Shown here: positions 1 through 61,681 of the stretch, one piece after another
Layout: every line of letters begins with the position of its first letter
Position numbering within the stretch: position 1 is the stretch's first letter
NCBI GenBank assembly: GCA_963829355.1
Contig: CAWHHZ010000008.1
Location: 296,236-360,235 of the forward strand
Direction: 5' to 3'
Origin: an uncultured Acidobacteriota bacterium
GTDB taxonomy: Bacteria; Acidobacteriota; Thermoanaerobaculia; Gp7-AA8; JAHWKK01
DNA length: 64,000 nt
Made by a program: the position numbers and the translations under genes
The notes under the pieces: model-generated
Database searches by the model: none
What the model saw: the letters and a program-made list of their open reading frames with translations, nothing else
Told to the model about the DNA's origin: nothing

Positions 1-905
1 AACCGAGCTCTCACGCGAGGGAGTATTCCTCCCGTCGACACCAGCTCAGTCCACGGGCGAGCTCCGCGATGGAGCTTAAACAAATCCGGTGTATTCAGCA
101 GGAAGCCAAGGGAGAGTACTCCGGCAAACGACAGCGCCCACAGTAGCTTCTGCCACCACTGCATACGGATTCGAAGCGTCATGGCCGCCAGTGCCGGGAA
201 TCCAAAAAGAACAACCGCGGCGGCCACCTCCCATCTGACACCGGTGAGAATGAACACACATACAGACAAGGCTCCCGCCGAGAAGGCGAACGATCTGTGC
301 AGACCCACCGCCGGGGATCCGACCCTGCCGACTCTAGCGATACAGTACGCCGCAGCCACAATCAGAAAAAACGTCACCGCCTCCTTCATAGGCTGCGTCT
401 CCCACAGGACCAGGGTCGGGGAAAACGCGATCACGACCGCGGTGATCATAGTGCCGGAGGGCCCCACCTTCGAGACCGGACAGCGACTGGCCCATCTTTC
501 AATCAGGAGCGCGATCCCCAGATATGCGAACAGGTTGAGGAGAATGGCGCTCGAGACATAGGACCCGAGCAATTGAAAGGGGACGAGAAGCTGGAGATAG
601 GTTCCATACCGGAAACCGGACAGTGCGAGGAAGGTTCCGTACCCGTTCTCGTACGCACGCTGCGCCCACGCGACATACCCATCACCGTCGATCCCCCAGA
701 ACCAGTAGCCGTCGCCCACCTGCATGGCCCGGGCGATCGGCAGGTTGAACCAGGAGATCAGGAACAGACCCGCTCCTGCCAGAGCTCTCACCGCGAAGCC
801 GAGCGCCATGATTCTGCCCACGACTGATCCTCTGGCCAGGCGGAGACCGATCCGCAGAAGAAGAGCACCTGCAGCCAGAAAGGCCAGAATCTGAACGATC
901 AGCAC
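1..905 (-). CDS. GT-C-fold integral membrane protein (Wzy/ArnT-like), 3' end beyond window
   Basis: Not in the ORF track; translated by hand from GTG at 905: MLIVQILAFLAAGALLLRIG...GIDGDGYVAWA...FSPTLVLWETQPMKEAVTFF..., open to the window edge. Many hydrophobic segments, DG..Y in the first loop and a P..W....KE motif typical of GT-C/Wzy-like proteins. Start overlaps the stop of the upstream GT4. Confidence 0.7.
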   Translation of the reverse strand, partial: MLIVQILAFLAAGALLLRIGLRLARGSVVGRIMALGFAVRALAGAGLFLISWFNLPIARAMQVGDGYWFWGIDGDGYVAWAQRAYENGYGTFLALSGFRYGTYLQLLVPFQLLGSYVSSAILLNLFAYLGIALLIERWASRCPVSKVGPSGTMITAVVIAFSPTLVLWETQPMKEAVTFFLIVAAAYCIARVGRVGSPAVGLHRSFAFSAGALSVCVFILTGVRWEVAAAVVLFGFPALAAMTLRIRMQWWQKLLWALSFAGVLSLGFLLNTPDLFKLHRGARPWTELVSTGGILPRVRAR

Positions 906-2041
906 GATGACGTTACCTTGTCGTAAAGCTCCTGATGTCGCCGCACGGCCTTTTCGAGACTGTACCCTTTCACGATACGTGTGCGGGATGCTGCTCCGAG
1001 CTCCTCCCTTTGCAGTGGGGCGAGAGCCATGATCGATTCGATGCCCCGCGCCAACTGCTCCGGCACTGCGGGATCCACGACATGATCCTTCCGTCCGACG
1101 AGTGTCGCCGAATCACCGGAATCCGTGACGACGCACGGGACACCGCAGGCCATGGCCTCCGCGATGACGTTGGGGAAGCCCTCTCCCCAGGCGGATGACG
1201 AAACGATCACATCGCAGGAGGCGTAGAAGGGTCTTGGATCGTCGAATCGACTGAGGAGACGGACGCGGCTCTCGATCCCGAGCTCTGAGATCAATCGCAT
1301 CAATTCCTCATTGTCCTCATCCACGCCCGCGCCCGCGAGAAGAAACCTCGTGTCGGCGTGTCTGCCGGCAACGAGTGCCGCTGCGTGAAGAAATGTCTGA
1401 AAGTCCTTCTTCGGGTGATATCGCGCGGCGCGCCCGACGACGAACGTCTGCGGATCGAGCCCCTGGCCCGCGCGCATGGAAACTCGCATCTCCGGGGACG
1501 GTCGGAACCACTCAGTATCGATGCCGTTCGGGATCATCTGCCACTCGTCGACTCTGTATCCGTAGTCCCGGTAATACTCCAATCCTGCCTGAGAATTTGC
1601 GACGACGACCTGCGGCCGGCGCGACATCATCCTCGAGAGGCCGTAAACGAATCGTCGCATGATCGCGCCGGCACCCGGCCCCGGCCCTGATTCCCGGATC
1701 CCCCATATCAACGGCGTCGATCGGGCAGTCATGAGCGCTGCCATCACGTTCGAATGGACCATCCAGGAGTGGACGAGGTCAGGCCGGTACGTCCTCAGAA
1801 TCGTGTGGAGACGCCAAAGAGCAGCCAGATCGCTCGCACGCCCGTTCATATCGAGCGTACGCACGGCTGCTCTACCCTCGATCTCGCCGGCCACGACGCC
1901 ACGCCCCTTCATCGAAATCACCAGATGCTCAAAGCGCTTACGGTCGGTCGCTGCAATGAGCCGCGACAGAAAACGCTGCGCGCCGTCTGCATCGAGGCTC
2001 GTGATCAGATGCGCGACGCGAATCAGGCCCTGACTATCCAC
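899..2041 (-). CDS. GT4 glycosyltransferase (WbnK-like)
   Basis: HLITSLDADGAQR, IPNGID, ARYHPKKD, EGFPNVIAEAMACGVPCVVTDSGD (EX7E). Confidence 0.92.
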   Translation of the reverse strand: MDSQGLIRVAHLITSLDADGAQRFLSRLIAATDRKRFEHLVISMKGRGVVAGEIEGRAAVRTLDMNGRASDLAALWRLHTILRTYRPDLVHSWMVHSNVMAALMTARSTPLIWGIRESGPGPGAGAIMRRFVYGLSRMMSRRPQVVVANSQAGLEYYRDYGYRVDEWQMIPNGIDTEWFRPSPEMRVSMRAGQGLDPQTFVVGRAARYHPKKDFQTFLHAAALVAGRHADTRFLLAGAGVDEDNEELMRLISELGIESRVRLLSRFDDPRPFYASCDVIVSSSAWGEGFPNVIAEAMACGVPCVVTDSGDSATLVGRKDHVVDPAVPEQLARGIESIMALAPLQREELGAASRTRIVKGYSLEKAVRRHQELYDKVTSSC

Positions 2042-3275
2042 GTGATATGCCGAGCATCTCGTCGTAGATATGGAGCGTTCTCCCTTTGACGCTCTCGAGG
2101 CCGAACTCCTCCTCGGCCCGTCTTCGACTTGCCCGTCCCATCCGCTGACGCACTTCAGGTGAGTCGATCAGCGTCCTCAAGGCGTTCGCGAGCGCCGCAG
2201 GATCTCGTTCCCGAACCAGAAGCCCATTCGTGCCAGCATCCACCACGTCGCGACATCCTCTGACGTCGGTCGTGACAATCGCCAGACCAGCAGCCGCAGC
2301 CTCGATCAGGCTCTTCGGCACACCCTCACCGTAGAACGATGGCAGACAGGCGATCGAGCTCTGACGAAGTAGATCAGGGATGTCGTCGCGCCTGCCGAGA
2401 TACTCCACCACACCCTCCCGATGCCACTCCTCGAGTTGTCTCGTACTGACCGAGTCGCGACTTCCGGGGTCCGGCTGGCCCGCGAGAAGGAATCGTACAT
2501 TGCAATCGCGGAGGAGACGTGCCGCTTCGACAAAGACACCAACTCCCTTGCTCCAGAGCATTCTCGCGTGGAGAATGACAGAGACTTCGGCGCGCGGCGA
2601 AGGAGCAGGCGAGAACAGCTCGAGATCGACCCCCGCTCCTCCGATCAGTTCGACCTGGTTCGAGCGAACCCACCCCAGACCGATGAAGGACTGCTGATCA
2701 TCCTGATTCTGAAAGACGAACCGGGTCCGGGGATGGAGTGATGCGAGACGATAGCCTACAGACATCGCGCGGTGAACCAGCCACGAGCGCCACCACCGCG
2801 TGGCGTAACTTCCTCCGATCCCTGGAACGGCATTCACGACCGCCGGGACATGACATGCGAATGCCGCCAACGTGCCGTAGAGGACGGGCTTGACCGTGAC
2901 ATGATGAACGAGGTCAGGCCGGAGCCGGCGGTAGAGCCGGACCAGAGCTGCAACTGACCGGAGCTCGCGAAACAAGCCGAGACTCGATCGCTCGAGAGGA
3001 TAGCGATGCCACCGAATTTGATCGCTATACGCTTCCTGTACCGTGTCGGGCCCGTCAGGTGTTGCCACATGAACTTCATACCCCGCATCCGCAGCAGCCT
3101 GGGCCAGCGGAAGTCGATGACTTCTGAAATATTCGAACTGGTTCACAACGAAGAGCAGCTTCCTGCCGGCTCCGCTCCTCGATAGCTCCCCGCTTTCCGG
3201 TTCGACGCATGGCTCACTGTCGACGAACCCTGTCCGCGCCTCCGTCAACCTGAGGTTCGACGCACCCACGATCAT
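2034..3275 (-). CDS. GT4 glycosyltransferase (CapM-like)
   Basis: FRSHRLPLA, HHVTVKPVLYG, FQNQDD, ARMLWSKGV, EGVPKSLIEAAA. The true start may be somewhat downstream. Confidence 0.92.
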   Translation of the reverse strand: MIVGASNLRLTEARTGFVDSEPCVEPESGELSRSGAGRKLLFVVNQFEYFRSHRLPLAQAAADAGYEVHVATPDGPDTVQEAYSDQIRWHRYPLERSSLGLFRELRSVAALVRLYRRLRPDLVHHVTVKPVLYGTLAAFACHVPAVVNAVPGIGGSYATRWWRSWLVHRAMSVGYRLASLHPRTRFVFQNQDDQQSFIGLGWVRSNQVELIGGAGVDLELFSPAPSPRAEVSVILHARMLWSKGVGVFVEAARLLRDCNVRFLLAGQPDPGSRDSVSTRQLEEWHREGVVEYLGRRDDIPDLLRQSSIACLPSFYGEGVPKSLIEAAAAGLAIVTTDVRGCRDVVDAGTNGLLVRERDPAALANALRTLIDSPEVRQRMGRASRRRAEEEFGLESVKGRTLHIYDEMLGISRG

Positions 3276-3306: not shown

Positions 3307-3765
3307 TTAATCGATCTCTGCTGGTAGCGCAGGACCGGGAACACCACGGATAAGTGTAGGGGAGAAACGGTTCGCTTTCATGAGGAGATTCTTCGACCGG
3401 TCCAGGTCTCCCGCTCTCCACTGGTACAGAGCGGCCTCCACGATCACCTCCGGCAACACACGCTGGTCGAGGGCCTCCTCATATTTTCTCCGGGCTCTTT
3501 CCGGGGCCTCCAGAGCCACCCACCCTCGCGCCTCCAGAACATCGAGGAGTCCTCTGATGTAAGGATCCATCGGCGGCAGAGACTCCAGGGTCTCAACAGT
3601 CTCCCGGCGCTCCGCGGCCGACCGCTGTCCCTCGTCCATTCTGATCTCCGCCCACTTCGCCACCAGGTTCCCCTGTCGCTGATTCAGTACGATCTGCTCC
3701 CAGAGCAGAAGTGCAAGGAAAGCGATTCCCAGCGTCAGCGCCGACTTGATGAACTTACCTCGCAT
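3307..3765 (-). CDS. Small membrane-anchored TPR-like helical protein (partner 1 of O-antigen ligase-like gene)
   Basis: ATG at 3765 (MRGKFIKSALTLGIAFLALLLW) overlaps the ligase stop by 11 nt. N-terminal TM, then DPY...ARG...A...YEEAL...G....A....P TPR-like pattern. Confidence 0.6.
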   Translation of the reverse strand: MRGKFIKSALTLGIAFLALLLWEQIVLNQRQGNLVAKWAEIRMDEGQRSAAERRETVETLESLPPMDPYIRGLLDVLEARGWVALEAPERARRKYEEALDQRVLPEVIVEAALYQWRAGDLDRSKNLLMKANRFSPTLIRGVPGPALPAEID

Positions 3766-5062
3766 CGCTACCCCATCCGATGAGAATCGCGATCGTGCCG
3801 TACACACCCGCCAGTTGCATCGGAAACAGGATCAGCGCGGCAAGCGCAGAACTGATCAGCGCCAGAAGAACCGCCATCGCCGGCGTCCGCCCTTCGCCTT
3901 TCAACACTCTGCGAAGCGACGAGCCTCCGATCACCGCCATCAGAGCCAGTGCAGCCGCAAGTACCACGAGCCCAGCCTCGGCCGCCGTCTCCAGGTAGTC
4001 GTTGTGAACCATATCGAAGAGTTGGGCCTCACCACGATCAACGATCCCGGGGTATCGTTCCCTGACCTCGATCGATCTCTCCACATACTCGATCGGAAAA
4101 CGACCGGGGCCGATTCCGATCAGGGGCCGCTCGGCTGCAGCAGTCGCGGCGACCAGGTACGGCCCGACCCTGGATCCCGAGGCGGATCCCCACTGCCCTG
4201 CCTCCAGCTTCGATGCATAGTAGGCGATGCGCCGCGAGACGTCTCTCTGAGAGAGGAGGATTCCGACACCGAGGGCGGGCAACAAAAGCAGCACGAGGAC
4301 CCGGACGGCGACAGCTCTCCGGCTGAGGGTCATGTACATGGCAGCCGCGACCCAGCAGATTGCGGTCGCAGCCACGATCGCGGTGATCGTGGTCGTGACG
4401 ACTATGCTCGCCCCCAGGATCACAGCCGTGCCGCCACCAGCGAGCCGCAACCATCGACGATCGCTGAACAGCAGGGCAACAGAAACCGAGAATGGGATGA
4501 GCAGGTAGAGACTCGAGTCGTTTCGATTCCCGGATAGTGCGGATTTCCTCAGCATCTCCGCGTCTTCGTAGTCCGCCAGTTCCTCAACCCGGACCAGCGG
4601 GGTCCAGATGCCGGCATCTTCAACGAAGAGTACTCCCGCATTGATCAGACCCGGAAGGAGAAAGACCAGCAGTAGACGTTCGTCACGAAAGTAGCGGGCA
4701 CAATCGCGCGCGGCGAACAGGAGCGCGAATCCGGCAGCGACGTCCAGCCAGGCCCACCACGATACATCCGGCTGCGGGGAGAGGGCCGCCGAGAGGGCCG
4801 TCCATCCAACGATCACGAGGCCCAGGACCAGAATCCAGTCTCTCGAGAACATCCCGAGAGTTGGTCTCTTCGGATACCAGATCTGCGCAGCAAGGTAGAT
4901 CGTAATCAGCAGGAGTGCTGCAGAACGAACGACGAGCACTTTCGGGAACCGCCAGGCATCCCAGCCATACGGGTCGATCGTGATGGGAAGAATGATCACG
5001 GTCAGACCGAGGACGAGGCCAGCCAGGCGGTGCTGCCACTGTTTGAACGATTCTTCGGACAT
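3755..5062 (-). CDS. O-antigen ligase / O-oligosaccharyltransferase family (Wzy_C), paralog 1
   Basis: About 12 TM segments, SGNRND, RPLIGIGPGRF, FDMVHNDYLETAAEAG (WaaL/PglL His motif). Confidence 0.85.
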   Translation of the reverse strand: MSEESFKQWQHRLAGLVLGLTVIILPITIDPYGWDAWRFPKVLVVRSAALLLITIYLAAQIWYPKRPTLGMFSRDWILVLGLVIVGWTALSAALSPQPDVSWWAWLDVAAGFALLFAARDCARYFRDERLLLVFLLPGLINAGVLFVEDAGIWTPLVRVEELADYEDAEMLRKSALSGNRNDSSLYLLIPFSVSVALLFSDRRWLRLAGGGTAVILGASIVVTTTITAIVAATAICWVAAAMYMTLSRRAVAVRVLVLLLLPALGVGILLSQRDVSRRIAYYASKLEAGQWGSASGSRVGPYLVAATAAAERPLIGIGPGRFPIEYVERSIEVRERYPGIVDRGEAQLFDMVHNDYLETAAEAGLVVLAAALALMAVIGGSSLRRVLKGEGRTPAMAVLLALISSALAALILFPMQLAGVYGTIAILIGWGSDAR

Positions 5063-5186: not shown

Positions 5187-6056
5187 TCAAAGCACTGCAT
5201 CGGGTGTCAGCAACCAGTAGTCGGGAGGTTTCCCTGCATAGGAGAGCAACTCGAGACTGTCTTCGCGCACCTTGCCGAGCGCCCACTCAGCCGTCTGTCG
5301 ATCCCATACGGCTTCGGGAGCCGGTCGGCGCCACAGCCGTCGAAGACCTCCACGCATTCCGAAAGGCACGAGATGATGAACATTCAACCGCGCCAGCAGC
5401 GGCAGAAGAATTCGAACAACGTGATGACGGGGAGCACCCTTGTCCACGGTACGGTTGATCGCTTCGACACGCCGGTGATCCGGCCGCTTCTGCGGATCGA
5501 CTCCGAGAAAAGCGTCACAGCGATGCAGCATGTCGACGGGTGACCGCTTCAGGTCCTCGAGGAAGAGCACCAGGATCTGCTCGTCGCTGAAGTAGCGCCG
5601 GAAGGCGTTGAGATTGCGCGAGTAAAGCGTCGCGTCGACGATGCCGCTATGAGTTCTGACGGCCTCGGAAAAGGAATCCGGGAGCGGCCATCCCTTCGCG
5701 AGATTAAAGCGCCATGCAGACTCGAGCCGTTTGAGGGGATGACGCACGATGTAGAGGAGGCGAGCGTCCGGCAGAGCACGGGCAATCCTCTCCGGCGCCG
5801 ACGGATTACGCGCGATCACCGAATACTGCACACTTGCCTCACCTACCGCGAGATGATCCCGTCCCGGTTCGAAAAGAGACAGGTACCATGACCAGTCCCC
5901 ATAGTGTTCGTTCCGCTCGCAGAAGTACATCGGCTCCTTCAGAGAGGGCATGAACACGTCGGGGTGCTGTCGCAGGTAGTACCAGAGCGTCGTCGAACCG
6001 CACTTCGGGACTCCGAACAGGAGGAAGTCGGGCGATCTTCGAGAACCAGTGCTCAC
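5187..6056 (-). CDS. Sulfotransferase
   Basis: 5'-PSB GVPKCGSTTL, KEPMYF, GEASVQY, 3'-PB VRHPLKRLES. Confidence 0.9.
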   Translation of the reverse strand: MSTGSRRSPDFLLFGVPKCGSTTLWYYLRQHPDVFMPSLKEPMYFCERNEHYGDWSWYLSLFEPGRDHLAVGEASVQYSVIARNPSAPERIARALPDARLLYIVRHPLKRLESAWRFNLAKGWPLPDSFSEAVRTHSGIVDATLYSRNLNAFRRYFSDEQILVLFLEDLKRSPVDMLHRCDAFLGVDPQKRPDHRRVEAINRTVDKGAPRHHVVRILLPLLARLNVHHLVPFGMRGGLRRLWRRPAPEAVWDRQTAEWALGKVREDSLELLSYAGKPPDYWLLTPDAVL

Positions 6057-7012
6057 CTGCTCTGCTCCATCAGACGCTTGAGCTTTCTCATGACCGGCAG
6101 AATTCCGGCGATCCGGAGTAGCTGCAGGTTCACGACCAGAATAGTGCGCCTGTCGATGCCGGAACGAAGAAGCCTCAGGACGTATCGAAGCGATTCCCGG
6201 CGCGAGGCGTGGCTGAGAAAGTAGGGAGAAGCATAGAGCGATTCGAAGCAGTCGACCCCGACGTCCTCCCGAGCGACTATCCCCTCAACGTACTCGTTCA
6301 GTACTTCGTAGTGCCGCCGCGTTCGCGGATCGTCAAGACGGCGGTAGAAACGATTTTCGCCATGAATACGATAGGCGCCGAGGCTCTGGCTGATCCCGAC
6401 AACGTCTCCCACCAGGTGAGCTCCGTTGAAGACGAAGACATCCGAGCAGACTCGCACACCACTCGCTGGCAGCGGGAAGATCCTGCCGGCAACCGCTCTC
6501 GTGATCGAGATCGCGGAGCTCGGAATCGGCCTGCTGGAGAACCATCCATTCTCAGACAGTTCCCGGATGGCAGCGGCGCGCGTCGAGGTTCGCAGCGAGA
6601 TGGTTCGTCCTCCGGTTGCCGTGCCGTCTCCCGTCACGTGATCCATTCTGTGACCGATCATCAGACGGGGCTCGTCTCCCGCCCCCCGCGCGCTCAGCTC
6701 TTCGACGACCGCTGCAACTTTCCCGGGATAGAAGGAATCATCGGCATCGAGAAAACAGAGGATGTCGCCACGACTCTCCTCGACGCCCCTGTTCATCGCC
6801 GAAGCCTGCCCCTGGTTGCTCTGGAAGATCGGTCGGATCCGCGAGCCGTAGGAACGAATGAGGTCGTGAGATTCGTCGGTCGATCCATCATCGACGACGA
6901 TCACCTCTGTATCCGCATAGCTCTGGGCAAGCGCACTGTCGATCGAATCGCTCAGAAACCTCGCGTAGTTGTAGTTGTTGATCAGAATCGAAACGAGAGG
7001 CTGGGATGGCAT
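6053..7012 (-). CDS. GT2 glycosyltransferase
   Basis: MPSQPLVSILINNYNY, VVDDGSTD, FLDADD. Start moved to ATG 7012. Confidence 0.9.
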   Translation of the reverse strand: MPSQPLVSILINNYNYARFLSDSIDSALAQSYADTEVIVVDDGSTDESHDLIRSYGSRIRPIFQSNQGQASAMNRGVEESRGDILCFLDADDSFYPGKVAAVVEELSARGAGDEPRLMIGHRMDHVTGDGTATGGRTISLRTSTRAAAIRELSENGWFSSRPIPSSAISITRAVAGRIFPLPASGVRVCSDVFVFNGAHLVGDVVGISQSLGAYRIHGENRFYRRLDDPRTRRHYEVLNEYVEGIVAREDVGVDCFESLYASPYFLSHASRRESLRYVLRLLRSGIDRRTILVVNLQLLRIAGILPVMRKLKRLMEQSR

Positions 7013-7091
7013 CGGGCGTAATAGTAACGCGGAAGGATCTGGCCCATGCGCAGCCGGGGACGAAACTGTCCCGCTGATCTGCCGGCTGATT

Positions 7092-7976
7092 TCAGGACCT
7101 CTCACCAAAACTCGCCGTGAAGAAATCGCGTGCTCCCCGTATCGTCGCCCCAGCACCGGGCCGCCGGAGGATCACTCTCCTGACGAGGCGGGCCACGTAC
7201 CGGAGCAGACTCACCATGAAGGCGCCGCGACTCCCGTGCTTACGGAGAAACAGCAGATGGTTCCTCGTCATGTAGTAAGCCCGGGCCGGGGAGTCGGCAC
7301 CACCGAGGGAGCGCGATACGTGATGAAGAACCCGGGAGCGTGGCTCGATGACCACTCTGTAGCCAGCCTCGCGGGCGGCAACACAGAAGTCGATATCCTC
7401 GAAGTAGATGAAGTAATCGTCGTCGAAGCGCCCGATGCGATCAGTCACGGCTGCACGTACCATCAGAAGACATCCCGGCACCCAGTCGACCGGGAAGGGC
7501 TCCCGCGCGACTTCGGCCGGATCGACTCCATAATGGAGCGATGGCGTATAACCATCGCCTCGTATCACACCTCCCGCAGCCCACACCGTCTGCGGCGGCT
7601 CCGCGTGAAGAATGACGCCACCGCAGATCGCCACCTCCGTTTCGCCATCCATCAGTTCGACCAGTGGCGTGAGGAAGTCGGGCATGACCTCTGTGTCATT
7701 GTCGAGAAAGAGAACGTACGTGAAGTCTCGAGCGGTGGCCCACTCCAGACCCGCATTCCGTCCTCCAGAGCATCCACGATTCACATCGAGATCGACGACA
7801 TGGACCTCCGGGAAACGTTCGCGAACCACATCGACGGAGCCATCGGCGGAGCCGTTGTCGACGACTACGATCGAGGCTCTGCCGAGCTCCGCCCGTCTGA
7901 GCGACTCGAGGCAACGAACGGTATCGTCGCGCTGATTCCAGTTGAGGAGGACGATCGCAGTCGACGATTCAGTCAT
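7092..7976 (-). CDS. GT2 glycosyltransferase (rhamnosyltransferase-like)
   Basis: IVLLNWN, VVDNGSAD, FLDNDT, GCLLM, YFEDIDFC, YYMTRNH. ATGA overlap with the upstream GT2. Confidence 0.9.
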   Translation of the reverse strand: MTESSTAIVLLNWNQRDDTVRCLESLRRAELGRASIVVVDNGSADGSVDVVRERFPEVHVVDLDVNRGCSGGRNAGLEWATARDFTYVLFLDNDTEVMPDFLTPLVELMDGETEVAICGGVILHAEPPQTVWAAGGVIRGDGYTPSLHYGVDPAEVAREPFPVDWVPGCLLMVRAAVTDRIGRFDDDYFIYFEDIDFCVAAREAGYRVVIEPRSRVLHHVSRSLGGADSPARAYYMTRNHLLFLRKHGSRGAFMVSLLRYVARLVRRVILRRPGAGATIRGARDFFTASFGERS

Positions 7977-8965
7977 GACGCGGGAGGCACCGATCGGGAC
8001 CGCCTCCCGATTGGCCATCCGAGCGGAGTCCGGGCGGCGAGACGAGCCAGCAAACCGTAGATGCGGACTCCCCTTTCGAGCCCGAACAGACGGAACAGAA
8101 TCCAGGACTTCTGCGACCGTGGCGGCCGGAAATCGGGCTTCAGCGCGAGTATCCATCGAGCGACCTGAGCAGCGGTGTCAGGGAAGGCGTAGGCTGCATT
8201 GCGCAACTGCCGATAGTACAAACGCGCAAGCTTCTCGCGGCGAGCGTCGGTGAGCTCTCCCCTCTCCCGGACCACTTCATCCATCATCCTGATGACACCC
8301 GGCTGCTCGGCTGTTATGTCAGTTTTCCCCCAGCTATTCTGACAGCGTTCCTCCGTGTGATGGCACCACACGTACGAGTCCAGGTCCAGAGAGACCACCG
8401 ACTCTGCGTGAAGCGCAACACGGGAAAAATACTCCCAGTCGACGAGCAGCTTCATCCTCCGCGAGCGATGCTTCCTGGCCAGATCGCCCCGATAGAGTGC
8501 CGCTGAGTTGACGACCGTCTTGTGGTCCAGAATTGCGTCGACGATCGGGTCGAATGTCGGAACCGGGCGGCGTTTCGTGATCGTGATCTCATCTCCCACA
8601 CGATCTGCCTCGAGCATCGAGGTCACGACGATGTCGGCACCCGTCGCATCACCGAGACGCACTTCCTCCTCGAGCGTTCCGTCGAGGAGAATATCGTCGG
8701 AGTCCAGGTACTTGACCCATCGGCCAGTGGCCCGGGCGAGACCCTCGTTTCTTGCCCCGGAGTTCCCGACATTCGTGTCGAGCCGAACCAGCTTTATCCA
8801 GTCATGGTCCGGCAGCGAAAGAGGGGGATCGGAGCCATCATCGACCACGATGTACTCGACACTGAGGGAGCTGGAACGCTGCCTCGCGACTGAGTCCACC
8901 GCGGTCTCCAGCATTCGCTGGCGCCCCTTCGAAGGGGTAATGATCGTGACGTCTGGATCAGACAC
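7973..8965 (-). CDS. GT2 glycosyltransferase
   Basis: VTIITP, VVDDGSD, ARNEGL, YLDSDD. Confidence 0.9.
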   Translation of the reverse strand: MSDPDVTIITPSKGRQRMLETAVDSVARQRSSSLSVEYIVVDDGSDPPLSLPDHDWIKLVRLDTNVGNSGARNEGLARATGRWVKYLDSDDILLDGTLEEEVRLGDATGADIVVTSMLEADRVGDEITITKRRPVPTFDPIVDAILDHKTVVNSAALYRGDLARKHRSRRMKLLVDWEYFSRVALHAESVVSLDLDSYVWCHHTEERCQNSWGKTDITAEQPGVIRMMDEVVRERGELTDARREKLARLYYRQLRNAAYAFPDTAAQVARWILALKPDFRPPRSQKSWILFRLFGLERGVRIYGLLARLAARTPLGWPIGRRSRSVPPAS

Positions 8966-9020: not shown

Positions 9021-10184
9021 CTAATGGAGCCGGCAGAAGCTGCTGAGAAGCGAGTCGAGGATCCCGGCGAATGCCGGTATGGCGTTCAGTTCATAACGCT
9101 GCGCAACCCTTTCGGCAGCGGTGCGGCCCATCTGCTCCCAGTCGTTCCTTCGCTCCCACGCACGTTCCATCGCGTCTTCAAACGATTGCGCTGTCGGTGC
9201 GGAGGCGAGAAATCCGGTCACGCCGTCGTCCACGAGCTCAGGATTGATACCGCAAGCCGTGACAATCGGAATTCTGCCGCAGAGCATCGCTTCGACCGTC
9301 ACCATCGGCATTCCCTCGTAACGCGAGGAAAGGATGAAGCCATGGTGACGAGCCCAGATCGAGCGCCGGTCCATTCATACCCCGCCAACTCGGCCCTTCC
9401 CTGGAGTCCGTGAAGGCGGATGAGTCCTTCGATCTGTTCCCGGCTTCCCTGGTCTTCTCCAAAGAACCGCACGATGAGGTTCCTCTTTCTCCAGCGTTCG
9501 CCGCTCGAGGACCCTCAAAAGAATATCCTGACCTTTCGAGCGGAAATGAAGTCGTCCGACACACGCCAGCGCCCATCCTCCGTCCTCGCCCGGCCAGGGA
9601 GGGAGCTCGTCGTAGGAAAGAAGAACCGGATTCGCAATCACCTGAGCGTTCTTCAGGCGGACGCAGATGTTCTCTTCGATGATCTCCCGGTTTTCGTTCG
9701 ACACGAAGAAAAGACGCTCCGCGCCCTCGAATGACGCCCTGAAGCGTCCGACCCACGATCCCTCGAACCACTCCGACCACGACGCCGCGTGGAGAACCAC
9801 CGCGTATGGGATCGACAGGCGCTGACACGCCTCGGCTGCGTAGACCGTCTCCTTGTCCTTGTGGTAGCCGCTCGAGATCAGAACGAAATCGGGTTTCTGC
9901 CCCCTCAGCCAGTGTTCGGCGGGAGAGCGGGGTACGCCGTAGCGCCTGCTGAGGATGCCGCGCAGCTTTGCCGGAATCGAGCGGCTCCTGAGCGCGATCC
10001 CGACCCCGGCCGCGTCGAGCTCCCGCAGCTGAGGTGCGGTATCGGTCCAGTACTTGTAGTTCAGCGCTACCTGATGCCCCCGGCTCTGGAGAAGTGGAAC
10101 GGTCTTGCTCCATAAAAGCTCGCTGCCGCCCCACGGTAGCCCGTCCATCGTCGAATAGATCCCCAACTTCATCTCGTTTCCCAC
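9021..10184 (-). CDS. GT4 glycosyltransferase, frameshifted (~9350-9500; probable sequencing indels)
   Basis: N-part PWGGSELLW...CVGRLHFRSKGQD (9375-10184) and C-part SRYEGMPMVTVEAMLCG (9021-9374) lie in different frames. Confidence 0.85.
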
Positions 10185-14110: not shown

Positions 14111-14152
14111 CTATTTTGGCGCCGGCAGTTTGACCGAAACAGGGAAGTTAAA

Positions 14153-46627: not shown

Positions 46628-46647
46628 CGGCAGAGCACGGAAGACCG

Positions 46648-48754: not shown

Positions 48755-48757
48755 TTG

Positions 48758-51563: not shown

Positions 51564-53500
51564 TCAGCGCACATACGCTTGAGTCATCAATGACAACGTC
51601 CCGCGATCCTTCTGTGACGCGAGCGAGCACAACTTCATCTCTTCCGGTATCAAATCCTTCAGAACCGCCATCGGTTCTTCGAGATTCGAGACGGTCGTGA
51701 GCTCCAGACGCCTGAGTATCTCGCCAACGACTTCACTTTTCGGTTGCGGTGCCTTCGTGATCACGATCTGCGGATGCTCGGTCGGAACGCTCGTCTCCCC
51801 GTCAAGACGAAGCTCCTCGAAGAGCTTCTCGCCGGGCCTGAGCCCCGTGAATCGAAGCTCGATGTCTTCGTCCTCACTCGTCAATCTGATGAGATCCTGT
51901 GCGAGATCGGCGATCCGAATCGGTTCACCCATGTCGAGCATGAAGATGTTCCTGTCGTCTCCCAGCGTCGACGCCTGGAGGACCAGGGAGATGGCCTCTG
52001 ACTGCCGGAGGAAATAGCGGGTGACCTCCGGGTGAGTCACGGTCACCGGACCGCCAGCCTTGATCTGCTCGAGGAACAGAGGCACGACACTGCCCGATGA
52101 GCCGAGAACGTTCCCAAAGCGGACGATCGTCATCCGCATCGGGGAACGTTCCGCAAAATCCAGCAGAGCAATCTCTGCCGCCCGCTTTGAAGCGCCCATG
52201 ACACTGGTGGGATTGATCGCCTTGTCGGTGGAGATCAGAACGAATCTGCCAACCTGATAGCGATCAGCTGATCTCCGCCAGCTTCACTGTGGCGAGCGTG
52301 TTGTTCCTGAAGTACTCGGCCGGATTTTCCTCGCCCAGGGGAACGTGCTTGTGAGCTGCTGCATGCAGCACGATCTCCGGCTTGATGTGATCAAACACAC
52401 GCTGAACGGCGTCGGAGTCGCAGACGTCGACCAGATGTCGTGACACGAGAGGCGCAAGCCATTGCCGCTCCGTTCTGAGTCGCTTGTCCACCTGGTACAA
52501 CGCGAATTCGCTGCGTTCCACCAATGCGAGGTGAGCCGGCTCGAATCCGAGAATCTGGAAGGCGAGCTCCGATCCGATCGTTCCTCCTGCGCCGGTGACG
52601 AGGACACGTTTCCCAGCGAACATCTTCCTGACCCGGTCACCGGGGAGCTTGATCTCCTCGCGCCGAATCAGATCCTCGATGTTGACAGGACGAAGCTGGG
52701 AAACATGCACTTTTCCGCTCACGAGGTGATCCACAGCAGGAATCGTCTTGAACTCGATGCTCGAATCGTCGAGCATCCTGACGATCTCGCGAATCCGTTT
52801 ACCGGAAGCCGTCGGAATCGCGATCAGAGCTTCGGCCACATCCATGTCTTCGATGATTTCCGGAGCGCGATCGATCGAGCCCAGAACCGGAACTCCCCGG
52901 ATCTGTGAGTTCCACTTCGCCTGGTGGTCGTCAAGAAAACCCACCACCTTCATCCCGAGCTGTGGGCGATGCTGGATCTCTCGCACAAGCGTCTCACCAG
53001 CGTCCCCGGCACCGATGATGATGACGTTTCGAGACGCTCCTCGGAAGCGATCTTTCCTCGTACGGTCCCGGAACAGCCGAACCGCCACACTGACTCCAAA
53101 CAGAGCAAGCAGCGCAAAGGCCCAGTCGATCAGAAGAGCACCTCGCGAGACCCCCCTCAACCGACTGGTGATGTCAAGCTCAGGCCCAACGAACCAGATC
53201 GCGAGCAGGATAATTTGTGCAGTGGTGAGTCCGACGACCAGGCGGATAACATCCGTGATTCCGACGTAGCGCCACCAGCCTCGGTAAAACCCAAAGAGCA
53301 AGCCCACGACGAGCTGGACGCCAACAACCAAGCGGAAGACTCGTTTCGAACCCTACGATCTGGTTCTTCGGGATCTCGAACTCGAAGCGCACCAGCATCG
53401 CAAAGACATAGCTGATCCAGAACACGAACGCGTGAAAAAGGAAAAGGATCAGCACCCGCGCGCCTGCGAGACGCTCAAGGATCTGGTCAACTCTCGACAT
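51564..53500 (-). CDS. Membrane-bound UDP-GlcNAc 4,6-dehydratase (PglF/CapD/WbpM family), frameshifts ~52260 and ~53335
   Basis: N-terminal TMs with WWRYVGITD, IIGAGDAG, TGAGGTIGSEL, HAAAHKHVP, ISTDKA, MGASKR, RFGNVLGSSGSVVP, GLRPGEKLFEEL. Confidence 0.9.
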
Positions 53501-56746: not shown

Positions 56747-56771
56747 CGGGGCGTCCGCCCTATTGCAACCG

Positions 56772-59700
56772 TCAGCTCATTCTGGTCAGCGCCACTCCTG
56801 CGAGGATGGCGGCCATCAGGAGCAGCATCCAGGTGCCGAGGGTCGGGATGTCGATCAAACCGACGGCTGCCGGGTTGATCACGAGATTCGCTTCGGCTGC
56901 GGTTCCGGCCTCGGCCAGGCCGGAGGTGATCGGACTGGTGATGTTGACGTAGACCCCTTCAACGGCATCGGCTGGCGCCTGCAGGTCGACGATGATGGTG
57001 CAGGTCTCCCCCGGTCCGAGAGAACCATTGGTCAGCGTGATCACACTGGTTCCCGTCAAGGTGGATCCGAAACCGCACACATTGTTCCTCGGCAGTCCGA
57101 CCGCGACCAGACCCGGCAGGACTGCATCGAGATCGTCGCTGAACCCTATCCCCGATACGGATGAGGTCGAATCCGGATTCACGATGGTGAAGCTCAGCCG
57201 CACCGCTCCTCCCGGAGGCGTCTCGCCGCTGAACCTCTTGCTGAACTGCAGGTAGTTGATCAGGAGATCATCCGTCGCTGCCTCTCCCTGCAAGCTCGTT
57301 CCTCCGAGCATCCCGTCGATGGGGCTCGTCATATTGATCACGGGCGGTCCCGGCGCGATCCCGGACGGCACTGCGAGAGTCACCGAGAAGGTGCACGATC
57401 CTCCGCCGGCCAGAGATCCCGCCGAGAGAGTGATCAGACTGGTTCCAGCCAGACTCGATCCGGTGCCGCAAACATCACTCATCGGCAGACCGGTTGCGAC
57501 GAGCCCCGAGAGCGCGGCATCCAGATCATCAGTGAACGTGATGTCGGTGATCGGCTCGGTCGGGTTCGGATTGGTGATCGTGAACTCGAGCTCCACGGTT
57601 CCGCCCGGAATGGCAGGATCGTCGACGAAGCTCTTGGTCAGCACGGCAGGTTCGGCGACGACCAGGTCATCCGATCCGCCTGCTGCAGATACGGCCCCCC
57701 CCGACACCGTGGCCGTGACATCGCTCGTCGTGTTGGTGTAGGTGCCGGGAGTGGCGCCCGTCGGGACGTCGAGCACCACCTGGAAGGTGCAGGAGTCACC
57801 CGGGGCGAGGGTTCCGCCGGTGAAACTGAGTAGTCCCGTTCCACTGATCTGGGAGCCAGCCCCGCAGACATCGCTGGCCGGCAGTCCCGTGGCCACAAGA
57901 CCGCTCAGAGCGGCGTCGAGATCGTCTGTGAAGCTGATCGACGTCGCATTGCCGGGCGCGCTCGCCGCGAGCGAGATGGTGAGCTCCAGAGTCGCGGTCC
58001 CGCCGGCTGCCACCGGGTCGTCAATGAACGTCTTTGTGATCGACGGCGCCTCGATGATCAGCAGGTCGTCCGACGCCGGCAACTCACTGACCGGGACGCT
58101 GCTCATGGTGGCAGAGACTGCGCTCGTGGTGTTCACGTACGTTCCGGTTGCGGCGGCGGCGGGCACCTGAAGCGTGACACTGAACGTGCAGCTTCCGCCG
58201 GGAGCGAGGACGCCGTCGGCCAGCGTGATGGTGCTCGTACCTGAAAGGGTCGAACCAGCGCCACATATGTTGGACTGAGGCAGGCCGGTTGCTACGAGCC
58301 CGCTCAACACTGCGTCGAGATCATCGCTGAAGGAGATCGAAGTCGCGTCGGCCGGAGCGCCAGCGTCGAGACTCAACGTGAACTCCACCGCGACCGTGCC
58401 GCCAGCCTCGGCGGGACCCGCAAAGGTCTTGGTCAGGACCGGGGCCCCTACAACGACCAGAGAATCGGAACCGGGCGGTCCGGTCTCGACACGGGAGTCG
58501 ACCGTTGCCGTCACGTCGCTGGTCGTGTTCAGACTCGAGCCGAGCGGCGCATCAGTGGGGAGTTGGACCGTCACGGAAAAGGTGCAGCTCCCGCTCGCCG
58601 GCAGCGTGGCACTCGTGAGTGTCAGCAGACTTGTTCCGGACAGAGTCGATCCGGCACCGCAGACGTCGTTCTGAGGAAGCCCGACGGCGACCATTCCCGC
58701 CATCGCCGCATCGAGATCATCCGTGAATGCGATGTCTGTTGCGGAGAATGCCGTATTCAGGTTCTGCAGGGCGAACTCGAGAGTCGCAGTTCCGCCGCTC
58801 TCCACCGGGTCATCCGTAAAGGTCTTCGTAATGGACACGGCCTGGGTGACCACGAGATTATCCGATAGTGCACCGATCGAGAATGCCGTTTCTTCTACTG
58901 AGGCGGTAATCTCGCTCGTGGTGTTCGAGTAGACACCAGTCCCCGCCAGCACGGGAACGGTGACCGTCACATTGAACGTGCAGGACGCTCCGGCGGTTAA
59001 ATGTCCACCCGTGAGCGTCAGGACGCTCGTCCCTGAGAGGGTCGATCCGACGCCGCAGACGTCGTTCTGAGGAAGCCCTGTGGCGACCAGTCCGGCCATG
59101 ACGGCGTTCAGGTCGTCCGTAAATGTAATGGAGTCGACATCAGCCGAGCTGCTGGTGTTCTGGAACGTGAATTCCATTGTCGCCGGTTCGCCTGGACGCA
59201 CCGGGTCGTCAGTAAAGGTCTTCGATCCGATCAGGGGGGCACCAACGACGAGCCGGTCGCTGGCCGGCCTCCCCGTAAGACCCCCGGCATCCGCGCTGAT
59301 GTTGCTCGTGACATTGACATATTCACCCGCCGCCGCGACGCTCGGAAGCTGGAGTGGAACATTAATCACACAACTGCTGCCCGGTGGGAGACTGCCGCCT
59401 GTCAATGTCAGGAGGCTCGTACCCGACAGTTGTGAGCCAGCACCACACACATCCGCAACGACACCGGCCGTCGAAACGAGTCCGGACAACACGGCGTCCA
59501 GATCATCCGTGAAGGTGATATCGGTCGCTGTATCGGTGGGATGAGCATTCGAGATGACGAAGCGGAGATTGACCGTTCCGCCGGCCACCGAAGGATCGTC
59601 GGTGAACGCCTTGGAAAGAGTCAGACCATTGATATCGAGATCGTCCACGGCTGGTGCGCCGGTGACCGCGAGTCCGGAGACGGTCGCCGCGATCGCGCTG

Positions 59701-61681
59701 GTGGTGTTCGGGTAAGAACCCGGCGTCGCGCCGGCAGGAACCTGTACGTCGACGGTGAACGTGCAGCTGTCGCCCGGAACGAGCGTGCCACCCGTGAGCG
59801 TGAGAACACTCGTTCCACTGAGCTGAGAGCCTGTTCCGCAGACGTCGTTGAGCGGAAGCCCGGTCGCGACGAGACCGCTGAGGGTGGCATTGAGATCATC
59901 CGTGAAGGTAATCCCCGTTGCGTCGGCTGGCGCGTTCTCGTTGTGCGTGATGGTGAATTCCAGAGTCGTGGCGGCGCCCGGATCGACAGGATCAGTGAAC
60001 GATTTCATGAGCTGCGGCGCGGCGACGACCTGCGCAGTGTCGCTCGCTGGAGCACCCGTCACCACGTTGCCTCCTACTGTCGCCTCGATCGGGCTGGTGG
60101 TGTTGGCATACGTGCCGTTCGAGAGTCCGGCCGCCATGTCGAGGCTGACCTGGAAGGTGCAGGACGCTCCCGCCGCCAGGTTGGCGCCGTTGACCAGGAA
60201 GGCGAACTCACCGGTGGTCGGACTGAATGGAGTGGCGGTCGATCCCGCTCCGCAGAAACCGGCGGCTGGAAGAGCGGAGACGGTTGTTCCCGCCGCGAAT
60301 GCGCTCACGTTGTCGGTAAAATTGATGTTCGTCGCGGAGTCTGTGATGCTGGTGTTGGTGATCGTGAACTCGGCCGTGACCGTGCCTCCGGCGATGACGG
60401 GGTCGTCGATGAAGGTCTTGGTCAGACGTGGAATCGGCTGCACGAAGAGCTGATCGGTGGCGGAGGACCCGCGAACGGCACTCCACCGAGAGCGGCGCTC
60501 ACAGCAGCTCGTCGTGTTGGCGTAGATCCCCGGCGTCGCTGCGGCCGGGACCTGGGAACCGTGACGTCGAACGTGCAGGAGCCTCCGGGGCGAGCGTCTC
60601 CGCCGGAAGTGTCAGAACAGGACGCCTGCTCAGACAGGAGCCGGCGCCGCAAGACGTCGCTGGCTGGAGGGCCCGTGGCGACTGAAGACCGCTCAATGTA
60701 GCGTCGAGGTCATCGGTGAACGTCATGCCTGTGGCCGTGTCGGTACGGCTCCGGTTGAGGATGGTGAAACCGCAGAGTCGACTGTGTCACCGGGCGGGAC
60801 CGGATCATCGACGAACTTTTTGACATGATCAGGTCTGCGGCCGTAACGGTCAAGCGCGGCGTTGGCGTGGCCAATCGGCCAGGGTCGCGGCCGCTAGTGG
60901 TTCCAGTGAGATCGCCGCGCAGAGTTCACGAATTCTCCTATCGAGGACGTCTCGACGCGACCGAGATCGTGCAGATAGCGCCTGAGGGAACGAGCCCCCC
61001 GGTCCACGAAATCGTGCCCGAACCTCGGACGCGGTGAGGGTTCCGCTGCAACCATTCGTCACGCCCGAAGGGTCAGCGATGACCATCCCGGCCGGCAACG
61101 AATCTGAAAAGCTAGACTTTGGGAAAAGGACGGGTTGGCACTGTTATCGATCGTGAAGGTCAGCGTCGCGCCTGGCCGAAGCCGACTGAGCTCGGTGAAA
61201 AGCTCTTGCTGAAGCCAGGGATGTTGAATTACTGACTGTCAGATCCGAGTTCGCGGGCCCGCTGTTTCCTGCCGACGACGTAAGATCTCCCGAAACATTC
61301 GAATGGGTACCTACGGCGCTGGAGGTGACATCCACCTTGACCGTGCAGCACGCCGCCGGCGGCGAGCGTTCCGCGCTGAAGCGATGATCGTTGACCCTCC
61401 CGAAGGAGCCGAGATGCGTTCCGCCGCAGGTGGAGCTTATCGCCGTCGCGATCGGAAATCATAACGCCTGCAGGCAAGGTGTCGACGAACGCTAGGTCCG
61501 AGACGATTCCGCCGCCAGTATTGTCGATCGTAAACGTGAGCGTGGACGTGCTGCCCGGTCCGATCGTGGCGGGCGAGAACGCCTTCGAGAATGCAGGCTG
61601 CGCCCAGAGGGCCGGAGCGAAAACAAGGACCGCAAAAAATGCTGCACACGAAAGTACGGCGGGCTGCTTCTGCTTCGACAT
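56772..61681 (-). CDS. Large IPTL-CTERM surface protein with ~12 DUF11-like Ig repeats (5' ~1.2 kb frameshifted)
   Basis: RBS GAGGAG and signal peptide MSKQKQ...APALWA-Q at 61681. Nine ~133-aa repeats in ORF 56772-60443 plus ~3 in broken frames. C-terminus IPTLGTWMLLLMAAILAGVALTRMS. Confidence 0.85.

Follow-up and report, generated by a model that had tools for sequence, protein, structure and literature searches.

The window analysed here is a stretch of 64,000 nucleotides from an uncultured Acidobacteriota bacterium of the class Thermoanaerobaculia. It holds the larger part of a surface-glycan locus in which putative genes for a sulfated polysaccharide of the Wzx/Wzy type are found together with two genes for secreted fibre-like proteins. 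The closest described counterpart of the polysaccharide part is the xss cluster for synechan of Synechocystis PCC 6803. As far as the available portion of the source goes (PMC8205485), the likeness includes a Wzx/Wzy-type pathway, sulfotransferases within the cluster, many glycosyltransferases, a gene resembling (in the window by topology) those of polysaccharide co-polymerases and an outer-membrane export gene outside the cluster, whereas the number of sulfotransferases differs (eight in the window against two in xss). The same portion terms sulfated polysaccharides scarce outside cyanobacteria; for Acidobacteriota we found no published work on sulfated glycans. Further differences are that our locus has CysD/CysNC and a WecA-type initiator in its gene run, that it adds WaaL-like cassettes, an Arn-like branch and fibre genes, that its host belongs to the Acidobacteriota and that it is known from genes alone.

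A second comparison can be made with the Arn, Gtr and streptococcal Pgf (PMC5856776) systems. The likeness consists of an aminotransferase, a GT2 glycosyltransferase with C-terminal transmembrane (TM) helices, a flippase-like protein and a GT-C transferase. The Arn pathway proper (ArnB, ArnC, ArnE/F, ArnT) differs in its substrate: the aminotransferase in the window is of the WecE type, for a dTDP-hexose instead of UDP-Ara4O. Moreover, the window module adds a WbqC-family protein, a methyltransferase and sulfotransferases, its GT-C protein forms a family of its own without a Pfam model, and its parts are located in two places.

The fibre proteins are most similar in kind to the MAT (mosaic adhesive trimer) fibres of Bdellovibrio, which, in the part of PMC10769870 that is available, share with them a chromosomal location outside prophages, a signal peptide, a tail-fibre-like trimeric form (predicted for ours) and exchangeable distal domains. 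The window fibres differ by an Ig/FN3-like N-terminal domain, and their host is no known predator. Linkage to a sugar module is a feature of the window fibres that this part of PMC10769870 does not describe for MAT fibres. For the ligase-like proteins the reference is the solved WaaL 7tpg: the profile of the window family matches it and the Arg and His-Asn positions are invariant, whereas G000 has three paralogs, all of them paired with a conserved small single-pass partner and none beside core lipopolysaccharide (LPS) genes. Finally, the locus is flanked by an adhesin that ends in an IPTL signal, and the exosortase H (XrtH) of this sorting system is present in the genome; it is located on another contig, however, the adhesin is one of four such proteins, and no specific tie to the glycan locus was found.

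Taken singly, every element is of an already known kind, be it the WaaL-like ligase, the three-part glycosylation system, the secreted trimer of tail-fibre type or XrtH/IPTL-CTERM sorting. New are the overall combination, the ligase-partner cassette, a GT-C family without a database model, and the recurrent linkage of fibre genes to a WecE/WbqC/ArnC-like module. We consider it fairly probable that the locus as a whole is best explained by a sulfated Wzx/Wzy glycan with WaaL-like cassettes and an Arn-like branch that is coupled to the fibres.

Fibre proteins and their genomic linkage

The window corresponds to positions 296236-360235 of contig C8 (C8:296236-360235) in genome G000 (4.84 Mb, 32 contigs, GC content ~0.60). 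Its inventory is based on six Pfam scans over approximately 60 open reading frames (ORFs) and one NCBIfam scan. For comparison 121 sampled Thermoanaerobaculia genomes (below: class genomes) were used, i.e. 120 besides G000; the tallies of the fibre family and of WbqC include two unpublished genomes (G104, G004), and no linked case depends on either. The genes of main interest are the following (window coordinates; other contigs and loci carry a prefix):

14108-15903, + strand: fibre paralog A with signal peptide; reading frame shifted by a net one base near 14431-14521; tblastn identity to paralog B 66-74%, distributed over two frames
16344-18089, + strand: fibre paralog B, 581 residues, Sec signal peptide, tail-fibre-like
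18205-19044, + strand: S-adenosylmethionine-dependent methyltransferase (Methyltransf_23/11)
19064-20635, - strand: GT-C fold glycosyltransferase, 523 residues, convergent with the fibre genes and next to the methyltransferase
43613-44329, - strand: WbqC-family protein, marker of the module (WbqC, E = 1.5e-65)
44464-45600 and 45611-46627, + strand: sulfotransferases 7 and 8 (Pfam)
46648-47607, + strand: ArnC/PgfS-like GT2 with two C-terminal TM helices (NCBIfam ArnC, PgfS)
47534-48754, + strand: WecE-type dTDP-4-amino-4,6-dideoxyhexose aminotransferase (DegT; NF008687)
48755-49729, + strand: flippase-like membrane protein LPG_synthase_TM (Pfam E = 1e-32; TIGR00374 57.3 bits against a cut-off of 43.2)

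A preliminary description of this DNA, made from the sequence only, had reported two secreted fibre-like proteins inside the locus. Both are found as paralogs with a signal peptide (14108-15903 and 16344-18089), and the label 'fibre-like' is right. Fibre B has more than 3392 homologs, all unnamed, without Pfam domains and mostly from Thermoanaerobaculia. The family is present in 60 of the 121 class genomes, where in many cases the match is confined to residues 1-400 and the remainder is substituted by other C-terminal domains. The monomer model is poor (predicted local distance difference test, pLDDT, 64). Its N-terminal Ig/FN3 sandwich was recognized with Z 9.8, and residues 486-561 resemble the tip of the tailspike of cyanophage Pam1 (7eea; Z 9.5, root-mean-square deviation (rmsd) 2.0 over 72 residues). 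Modelled in three copies, residues 330-581 yielded an intertwined trimer with a score of 0.95 (best control 0.00), the runs agreeing in at least 96% of the contacts at a pLDDT of at least 93; this score was calibrated on two copies instead of three, and there the threshold was passed by 20 of the 30 solved homo-oligomers and by 1 of the 23 single chains. We confidently predict fibre B to be an intertwined homotrimer, although the model supports binding without showing it. Foldseek gave a weak match of the fibre to the Bd2133 fibre 8ond (E = 3.7e-3, probability 0.44).

To describe the surroundings of the family, 20 fibre contexts were searched with all window proteins. Fibre genes are next to homologs of window 43613-49729 (WbqC, sulfotransferases 7/8, GT2, DegT) in five of these (L015, L017, L028, L029, L030), and homologs of sulfotransferases 7/8 are seen beside WbqC or fibre genes in L015, L017, L028 and L042. 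WbqC is single-copy and occurs in 19 of the 121 class genomes. Thirteen other genomes hold both WbqC and a fibre match of the N-terminal type, and in six of them the two genes are at most 6 kb apart (G048 0.65 kb, G083 2.2, G067 3.1, G111 5.2, G107 5.3, G005 5.7). A seventh, G051, has the fibre gene adjoining a sulfotransferase (ST7), GT2 and DegT/WecE rather than WbqC, which brings the count of fibres beside the module to 7 of 13. The linked cases come from three families and five to six genera and show differing gene orders. In G000 itself the fibre genes abut the methyltransferase and the GT-C gene of the module. For the ligase-like genes the result was opposite: among the 27 class genomes that hold both a fibre gene and a homolog of WzyC3 (one of the window's ligase-like proteins, see below), none has the two near each other.

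The fibre family is genetically linked to the Arn-like module, not to the ligases. The relation between fibres and glycan proposed in the preliminary description consequently survives through the WecE/WbqC/sulfotransferase/ArnC-like GT2 module, but not in the form given there, in which the ligases were to transfer the glycan to the fibres or the adhesin. The fibres may be coupled to the Arn-like branch as its acceptor, as a glycan-anchored structure or by co-regulation. Two observations weigh against such a coupling: the linked genomes are kin, so the above counts overstate independence, and most fibre-bearing genomes are without WbqC (of the 59 other genomes in which a fibre match occurs, approximately 14 have the gene).

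It might be argued that fibre and adhesin genes are passengers that variable surface-structure islands have collected, their adjacency being functionless. This would fit the mosaic nature of the whole locus (with paralogous copies and GC dips), the 9 of 20 fibre contexts that contain no homolog of any window protein, and the closest relative, G022, which is without fibre, WbqC and sulfotransferase matches. Nonetheless, proximity within 6 kb in 6 of 13 genomes, spread over three families and with rearranged order, is far above chance (~12 kb in 5 Mb per pair), and we hold a functionless adjacency to be unlikely.

A large accumulation of the family was seen in G020 (C10:127600-175400; L021, L022), where at least nine fibre-family genes form two tandem arrays with sulfotransferase and PglF-like genes between or beside them.

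The Arn-like sugar module

Judged by its protein families, the module corresponds in outline to an Arn-, Gtr- or Pgf-type three-part system, which carries a single sugar across the membrane on a lipid. DegT passes both the dTDP-4-amino-4,6-dideoxygalactose transaminase model NF008687 (523 bits against a cut-off of 375) and the WecE model (485 against 435), and is 49.6% identical to E. coli WecE. After trimming of a spurious N-terminal extension, GT2 matches the ArnC model over positions 9-312 of 316 (E = 1.3e-46, below the equivalog cut-off) and the PgfS model with E = 6e-30. As is typical of polyprenyl-phosphate sugar synthases, the protein has two TM helices at its C-terminus. Of 10 further WbqC loci, 9 contain a group formed by WbqC, the WecE-type gene and the ArnC-like GT2. 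A methyltransferase homolog is often part of this group: relatives of 18205-19044 are located beside WbqC/GT2d in L043, L044, L047, L049 and L059. RmlA-like and RmlB-like genes are present elsewhere in the genome, which has no RffC or WecF homologs at E <= 1e-8. In the literature as far as it was available, no published work on the function of WbqC was found.

Under the scheme that we propose, the WecE-type aminotransferase would, together with WbqC, make a dTDP-4-amino-4,6-dideoxyhexose derivative, which the ArnC-like GT2 would load onto polyprenyl phosphate. The flippase-like protein would then turn the lipid-linked sugar outward, and, on the outer face of the inner membrane, the GT-C protein 19064-20635 would pass this single sugar on to an acceptor. 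The identity of the sugar, the order of the steps, the sulfation of the sugar and every acceptor are proposals, built on the family assignments, the fold, the trimer prediction and the gene linkage.

Four genomes of one genus (g10) show a membrane protein of ~640 residues with 12-15 TM helices directly after the WecE-type gene (L044:11969-13888, L047:5800-7785, L048:13124-15031, L049:11494-13413). These proteins are 48-65% identical, have no sequence match in the PDB and are a candidate for the transferase of that lineage.

A GT-C fold transferase beside the fibre genes

The protein encoded at 19064-20635 has no relative in Pfam, NCBIfam or, as a single sequence, in the PDB, and a word-index homolog search returned only the protein itself. 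A full HMMER search yielded 144 remote homologs that are equally long, and with 47 homologs AlphaFold gave a model with pLDDT 88.6 and a predicted template modelling score (pTM) of 0.90. When this model was compared with 48,161 chains using VIA-align, the first 18 rows were all GT-C enzymes and the next unrelated chain scored Z 6.4. The highest value was obtained for Pmt4 (Z 11.8, rmsd 4.2, 289 aligned), which by itself is within the chance range for helical membrane proteins; it is followed by AglB (11.1), ALG12 (10.9), STT3 (10.6), ALG9 (10.6), Pmt1-Pmt2 (10.5), AftA (10.0), PglB (9.8), EmbA/B (8.7) and ArnT (8.5). The uniform list of GT-C enzymes and the sharp drop in Z argue against a chance match. 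Across the 47 sequences there is hardly any variation at Asp47-Glu48, a pair in loop 1 that directly follows the first TM helix, at a position that we take to be the catalytic-acid site of PMT and ArnT-type enzymes. Not one of the 47 family members matches a GT-C Pfam model at E <= 0.01, and a search of PDB sequences with the family profile gave nothing. A language-model atlas pointed to DUF6798.

Outside the class, at least one module gene is located beside a member of the GT-C family in 5 of 14 loci from other phyla, the hosts being Pseudomonas, Dechloromonas, Aestuariibacter and a Peptococcaceae. In L056 and L060 the gene directly upstream is of the WecE type (48-49% identical to that of the window), L057 has an ArnC-like GT2 as its only module gene, and L052 and L059 have WbqC together with the other module genes. 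Because of the GT-C fold and these neighbours in other phyla, we read 19064-20635 as the putative transferase of the Arn-like module.

Several results speak against this assignment or against its extension to the fibres. Foldseek also placed GT-C enzymes in its top six rows, but with E values of 0.0045 to 0.057, all above 0.001. The family was found in none of the other 120 class genomes searched, so the adjacency of fibre and GT-C genes is unique to G000. Within this genome the two halves of the branch are 23 kb apart (26 kb from GT-C to GT2), and in loci outside the class no fibre genes accompany the module and GT-C. Four orphan membrane proteins (L015:6483-7979, L028:16205-18349, L030:5608-7458 and C8:281983-283671) could not be tied to the GT-C family with BLAST or hhalign; for the L028 protein the language-model atlas gave only a PMT_2 lead (4 of 30 matches).

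One way in which the branch could act on the fibres is that the exported fibre is the acceptor, O-glycosylated by the GT-C protein with one 4-amino-4,6-dideoxyhexose, which might be sulfated or methylated, in the manner of PMT enzymes or streptococcal Pgf. The best structural matches of the GT-C protein include the protein-modifying enzymes Pmt4, AglB, STT3, Pmt1-Pmt2 and PglB, GT2 also matches PgfS (E = 6e-30), and fibre genes adjoin GT-C in G000 and the module in 7 of 13 genomes. Pgf is described to glycosylate surface adhesins in the available parts of PMC5856776 and of bioRxiv 10.1101/2022.10.10.511621. On the other hand, the GT-C family and the module are without fibre genes in other phyla, most fibre genes are without the module, the lipid- and glycan-modifying enzymes ArnT, Emb and Aft match the GT-C protein as well, and no acceptor motif was identified. 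Direct glycosylation of the fibres is consequently possible but doubtful.

By analogy, the fibres might instead remain unmodified and bind, with their conserved N-terminal region, the amino sugar that decorates LPS or polysaccharide; this binding would hold them on the surface, the genes being co-inherited. The Caulobacter S-layer and its O-antigen form a parallel for such a sugar-anchored surface protein. Conservation of residues 1-400 next to swapped C-terminal domains, the predicted intertwined trimer with a distal domain resembling a phage tailspike, and the linkage to a sugar module would all suit an anchor of this kind. Many fibre-bearing genomes are without the module, however, and we give this proposal slightly less credence than direct glycosylation.

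Returning to the coupled Arn-like branch that we favour, its most far-reaching form would be that an unrecognised GT-C family (at least six phyla, no Pfam model) serves an Arn-like pathway for a WecE-derived 4-amino-4,6-dideoxyhexose, and that in Thermoanaerobaculia it has been recruited to O-glycosylate or anchor trimeric fibres with a sulfated or methylated amino sugar. We put this forward as a speculation that is rather unlikely to hold in full; if true, it would be a new kind of protein-glycan coupling on the diderm cell surface. As the fibre linkage concerns a defined sugar module of three to five genes, the choice between glycosylated and glycan-anchored fibres is directly testable by co-expression in E. 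coli. The GT-C family with its confident model, and the WaaL-like ligase with its small partner (see below), are two new testable parts.

The predicted sulfated glycan and the extent of the locus

The composite surface-glycan locus is approximately 73 kb long and extends from C8:276481 to ~C8:349700. The preliminary description had it run from 899 to 61681; these coordinates are right, but a continuation of ~20 kb beyond the window start was overlooked, in which the genes form an unbroken run on the same strand. This upstream run begins with CysNC (adenosine-5'-phosphosulfate kinase fused to the GTPase subunit) and CysD at C8:276481-279930, 17-20 kb upstream of the window, and also carries an epimerase and four GT4. 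Its other features are:

C8:280033-281214, upstream of the window: WecA-type PF00953 initiating transferase (PF00953, E = 3e-35)
C8:281983-283671, upstream: 562-residue membrane protein, paralog of the first gene of the window
C8:288371-289672, upstream: second Wzx (family scan)
C8:293580-295511, upstream: intact PglF paralog, 70-75% identical to the window copy

In the window the following genes belong to the glycan machinery:

3-905, continuing upstream of the window, to C8:296807, - strand: multi-pass membrane protein without Pfam family, 44% identical to the 562-residue protein C8:281983-283671
899-2041 and 2034-3275, - strand: two GT4 glycosyltransferases (Glyco_trans_1_4, E = 5e-28 and 8e-31)
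5187-6056, - strand: sulfotransferase 1 (Sulfotransfer_1, E = 1.5e-13; PKCGST loop)
6053-8965, - strand: three GT2 glycosyltransferases (Glycos_transf_2, E = 3e-28, 1.5e-25 and 2.8e-21)
9238-10184, - strand: GT4, broken in the assembly (Glyco_transf_4, E = 6e-6 on one piece; GT4 C-terminal motif past a stop)
10198-11154 and 11158-12159, - strand: sulfotransferases 2 and 3 (Sulfotransfer_3, E = 8e-18 and 5e-19)
12325-13853, - strand: protein that is Wzz-like by topology, in two frames (C-terminal TM residues 402-420; N-terminal TM piece in the other frame)
20757-21752, + strand: NAD-dependent sugar epimerase/dehydratase (Pfam)
21756-22994, - strand: GT4 (Pfam)
22989-26846, - strand: second, divergent pair of heparinase II/III-like protein and ADH_zinc_N/GFO oxidoreductase, in several frames (Pfam)
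26777-27802, - strand: GT4 glycosyltransferase (Pfam)
27983-28969, - strand: sulfotransferase 4 (Pfam)
29036-29888, - strand: sulfotransferase 5, frame-split (IPKSGTN loop and RDPRD motif in different frames)
29885-31264, - strand: Wzy_C protein 2 (Wzy_C, E = 3.8e-8)
31280-32800, - strand: Wzx flippase (Polysacc_synt, E = 1.7e-15)
32797-33840, - strand: sulfotransferase 6 (Pfam)
34205-43168, - strand: run of seven genes including AsnB-type amidotransferase, methyltransferase, ADH/GFO oxidoreductase, heparinase II/III-like protein, UDP-ManNAc dehydrogenase and UDP-GlcNAc 2-epimerase (Pfam)
51564-53485, - strand: PglF/WbpM-type membrane 4,6-dehydratase in three frames (Polysacc_synt_2 halves; 70-75% identical to the C8 paralog)

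Overall, the window contains twelve glycosyltransferases (six GT4 and six GT2) and two copies of the pair of heparinase II/III-like protein and ADH/GFO oxidoreductase. It has no gene for a PF00953-type initiating transferase; the upstream PF00953 protein also matches the WecA model (E = 6.6e-28), under the cut-off of that model. Given the eight sulfotransferases, together with CysD/CysNC and the WecA-type initiator in the same gene run, a sulfated glycan built by the Wzx/Wzy route is well supported by the predicted gene functions.

WecA-initiated Wzx/Wzy units would build a sulfated heteropolysaccharide on a lipid carrier, with 3'-phosphoadenosine-5'-phosphosulfate (PAPS) from the adjacent CysD/CysNC feeding the eight sulfotransferases. 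Wzx would flip the repeat units, which Wzy_C protein 2 would probably polymerise. Wzy_C protein 2 is not detectably related to the profile of the ligase-like family and, judged by its position next to Wzx, is likely the polymerase.

Most of the corresponding inventory in the preliminary description can be upheld. The Wzx flippase is confirmed by its Polysacc_synt match, and the eight sulfotransferases by family matches; the fifth is split over frames yet retains both the loop and RDPRD, which we assume to be the two PAPS-type motifs. A Wzy_C protein does stand beside Wzx, though its role as the announced polymerase follows from position only. The Wzz-like protein has the topology implied by its name (an N-terminal TM helix, a long helical part and a C-terminal TM helix) but no Pfam, NCBIfam or PDB match, hence none to the Wzz family. 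As had been stated, the window contains no Wza/Wzc genes: neither Poly_export nor Wzz gave a Pfam match there, and the matches of the genome for both are on contig C9 (Poly_export only at C9:17199 and C9:29447).

The locus is a mosaic of several Wzx/Wzy units, which contain paralogous copies and dips in GC content. The GC content is 0.54-0.56 at 28000-34000 (Wzy_C protein 2, Wzx and sulfotransferases) and at 44000-46000 (sulfotransferases 7 and 8), against ~0.60-0.62 elsewhere. Dips of this kind are often seen for exchangeable serotype genes. No tRNA genes were found in the window.

The Sulfotransfer_3 family is present in 64 of the 121 class genomes, which suggests that sulfated envelopes may be common in the little-studied Thermoanaerobaculia of soil and sediment. 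G000 has nine matches, exceeded by two genomes only (16 and 11). It also has a second sulfated-glycan locus of the ABC-transporter type at C4:125500-141500 (L039), with a sulfatase, a methyltransferase, the third ligase-like paralog and its partner, a beta-helix protein, a Sulfotransfer_2 protein, an 886-residue GT4 and Wzm/Wzt-like genes. A role of the heparinase II/III-like proteins as uronate C5-epimerases was considered and dropped; a term search in PMC3068255 found no mention of heparinase.

Ligase-like Wzy_C cassettes

Besides Wzy_C protein 2, the window codes for two Wzy_C proteins of a different family, each followed by a small gene:

3755-5062, - strand: Wzy_C ligase-like protein 1 (WzyC1; Wzy_C, E = 2e-12)
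3307-3807, - strand: ligase partner 1, small single-pass helical protein homologous to the other two partners; no family match
50190-51506, - strand: Wzy_C ligase-like protein 3 (WzyC3; Wzy_C, E = 5e-16)
49748-50212, - strand: ligase partner 3, small helical protein homologous to the other partners

WzyC1 and WzyC3 are 37-38% identical, and a third paralog of the family is located at C4:128032; in total seven Wzy_C proteins of the genome score above the cut-off. All three ligase-family genes are followed by a small gene whose product has a single TM helix and is helical towards its C-terminus. These partners (including L039:7176-7790) are mutually homologous (E = 5e-13, 2e-10 and 1e-4 to 7e-6), and a partner is also found downstream of the ligase gene in G022 and G051. 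Co-occurrence of ligase and partner, as suggested in the preliminary description, is thus kept in relatives, but co-occurrence of ligase and fibre is not (0 of 27), and the label 'TPR' given to the partners found no support: they match neither TPR nor any other family model in Pfam and NCBIfam.

The ligase-like nature of the two paralogs, in turn, is corroborated. A profile of 11 sequences of the family matched the WaaL of Cupriavidus metallidurans (7tpg) over the C-terminal 60% with E = 2.3e-14, and nothing else in the PDB rose above noise; single-sequence PDB searches with both Wzy_C types gave no match. R296, H350 and N351 are invariant in the 11 sequences, the Arg and His being in our assumption the catalytic positions of the periplasmic loop of WaaL. 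Compared by hhalign with the E. coli proteins, the family gave E = 0.007 for WaaL (136 columns, the sole extended alignment), 0.011 for WzyE (32 columns) and 0.25 for Wzy. The C4 paralog is next to ABC_tran and ABC2_membrane genes (Wzm/Wzt-type), a sulfotransferase and a sulfatase; in such an ABC-transporter locus a polymerase would be superfluous, which supports the ligase-like label. None of the three Wzy_C proteins of the window matches an NCBIfam model at E <= 0.01, a library in which the model for the PEP-CTERM-associated O-glycosylation ligase should be present. Fused, longer versions of the ligase did not turn up, which is weak evidence.

It is reasonable to regard WzyC1 and WzyC3, on their sequence relationships, as members of a WaaL-like ligase family. 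Against this it counts that the match to WaaL is unable to separate WaaL from PglL-type enzymes and that no ligase gene stands beside the GT9 core genes. The cassettes would most likely join the finished lipid-linked glycan to an envelope acceptor. As a first guess this acceptor may be lipid A-core, which is the simplest one because the locus has no Wza/Wzc and the genome has an LPS pathway (genes for LpxC and GT9 heptosyltransferases).

That WzyC1 and WzyC3 are instead PglL-type O-oligosaccharyltransferases, placing the sulfated repeat glycan on the fibres or the IPTL-CTERM adhesin as a proteoglycan-like coat, is improbable: the Wzy_C family includes both WaaL and protein O-oligosaccharyltransferases, three paralogs in different glycan loci with a partner each are more than LPS ligation normally needs, none is beside the core-LPS GT9 genes and the adhesin is rich in Ser and Thr, but no WzyC3-like gene is close to a fibre gene in the 27 class genomes holding both, no NCBIfam ligase model matches at E <= 0.01, the sole solved relative is a WaaL, and the genome has its IPTL-CTERM proteins and exosortase H in dispersed places.

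Adhesin and IPTL-CTERM sorting

The locus is followed by one large surface protein:

56772-61681, - strand: adhesin with signal peptide, nine DUF7933 domains, DUF11 and an IPTL-CTERM tail; 5' quarter broken over frames

The Ser/Thr-rich IPTL-CTERM adhesin of the preliminary description is hereby recovered, with a Ser+Thr content of 24%. Its tail (TIGR04174, at C8:353013-353084) scores 23.6 bits against a cut-off of 20.5, and 19.9 in the NCBIfam ORF scan. Exosortase H (TIGR04177, 105.3 bits against a cut-off of 86) is on another contig and the four IPTL-CTERM proteins are scattered over the genome, which does not sustain the suggested tie of the adhesin to the glycan locus. We found scarcely any published work on IPTL-CTERM.

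An adhesin homolog or other DUF11 adhesin is beside a fibre gene in 3 of the 20 fibre contexts. In each of these the DUF11/DUF7933-type gene directly adjoins the fibre gene (L015:11289-13907, L023:12009-15629, L025:11871-15098). The window adhesin is 40 kb from the fibre genes.

Split genes and assembly quality

At least ten genes of the window are read in two or three frames. Among them are the genes for fibre A, for PglF (in three frames), for both oxidoreductases and the second heparinase-like protein, for one GT4, for sulfotransferase 5 and for the Wzz-like protein; in the adhesin gene it is the 5' quarter that is affected. When 18 conserved E. coli proteins were aligned to the whole genome, four frame changes were found in ~28 kb of coding sequence, in murE, mraY and murD (twice); rpoB, rpoC and secA showed none. 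The three affected genes are essential and lie in the dcw cluster (C7:13000-24300), where they are read in two or three frames. Assembly-wide we estimate approximately one indel per 5-7 kb.

As the rate of frame changes in essential genes resembles that of the window, the split genes are probably due to indels in the assembly and intact in life, even though the indels that were inspected are outside homopolymers. Pseudogenes were considered and rejected, since the essential murE, mraY and murD shift frame at a similar rate. Gene calls from such an indel-bearing assembly will be fragmented, and other findings on this genome may suffer as well.

Past the adhesin, an ORF of 336 residues (61933-62943, - strand) has matches in the PglF paralog (dehydratase domain; 25% identity, E = 1.6e-13) and in E. 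coli RffG (26% identity, E = 1.5e-30), which points to a sugar-nucleotide enzyme of the short-chain dehydrogenase/reductase type beyond the reported end of the locus.

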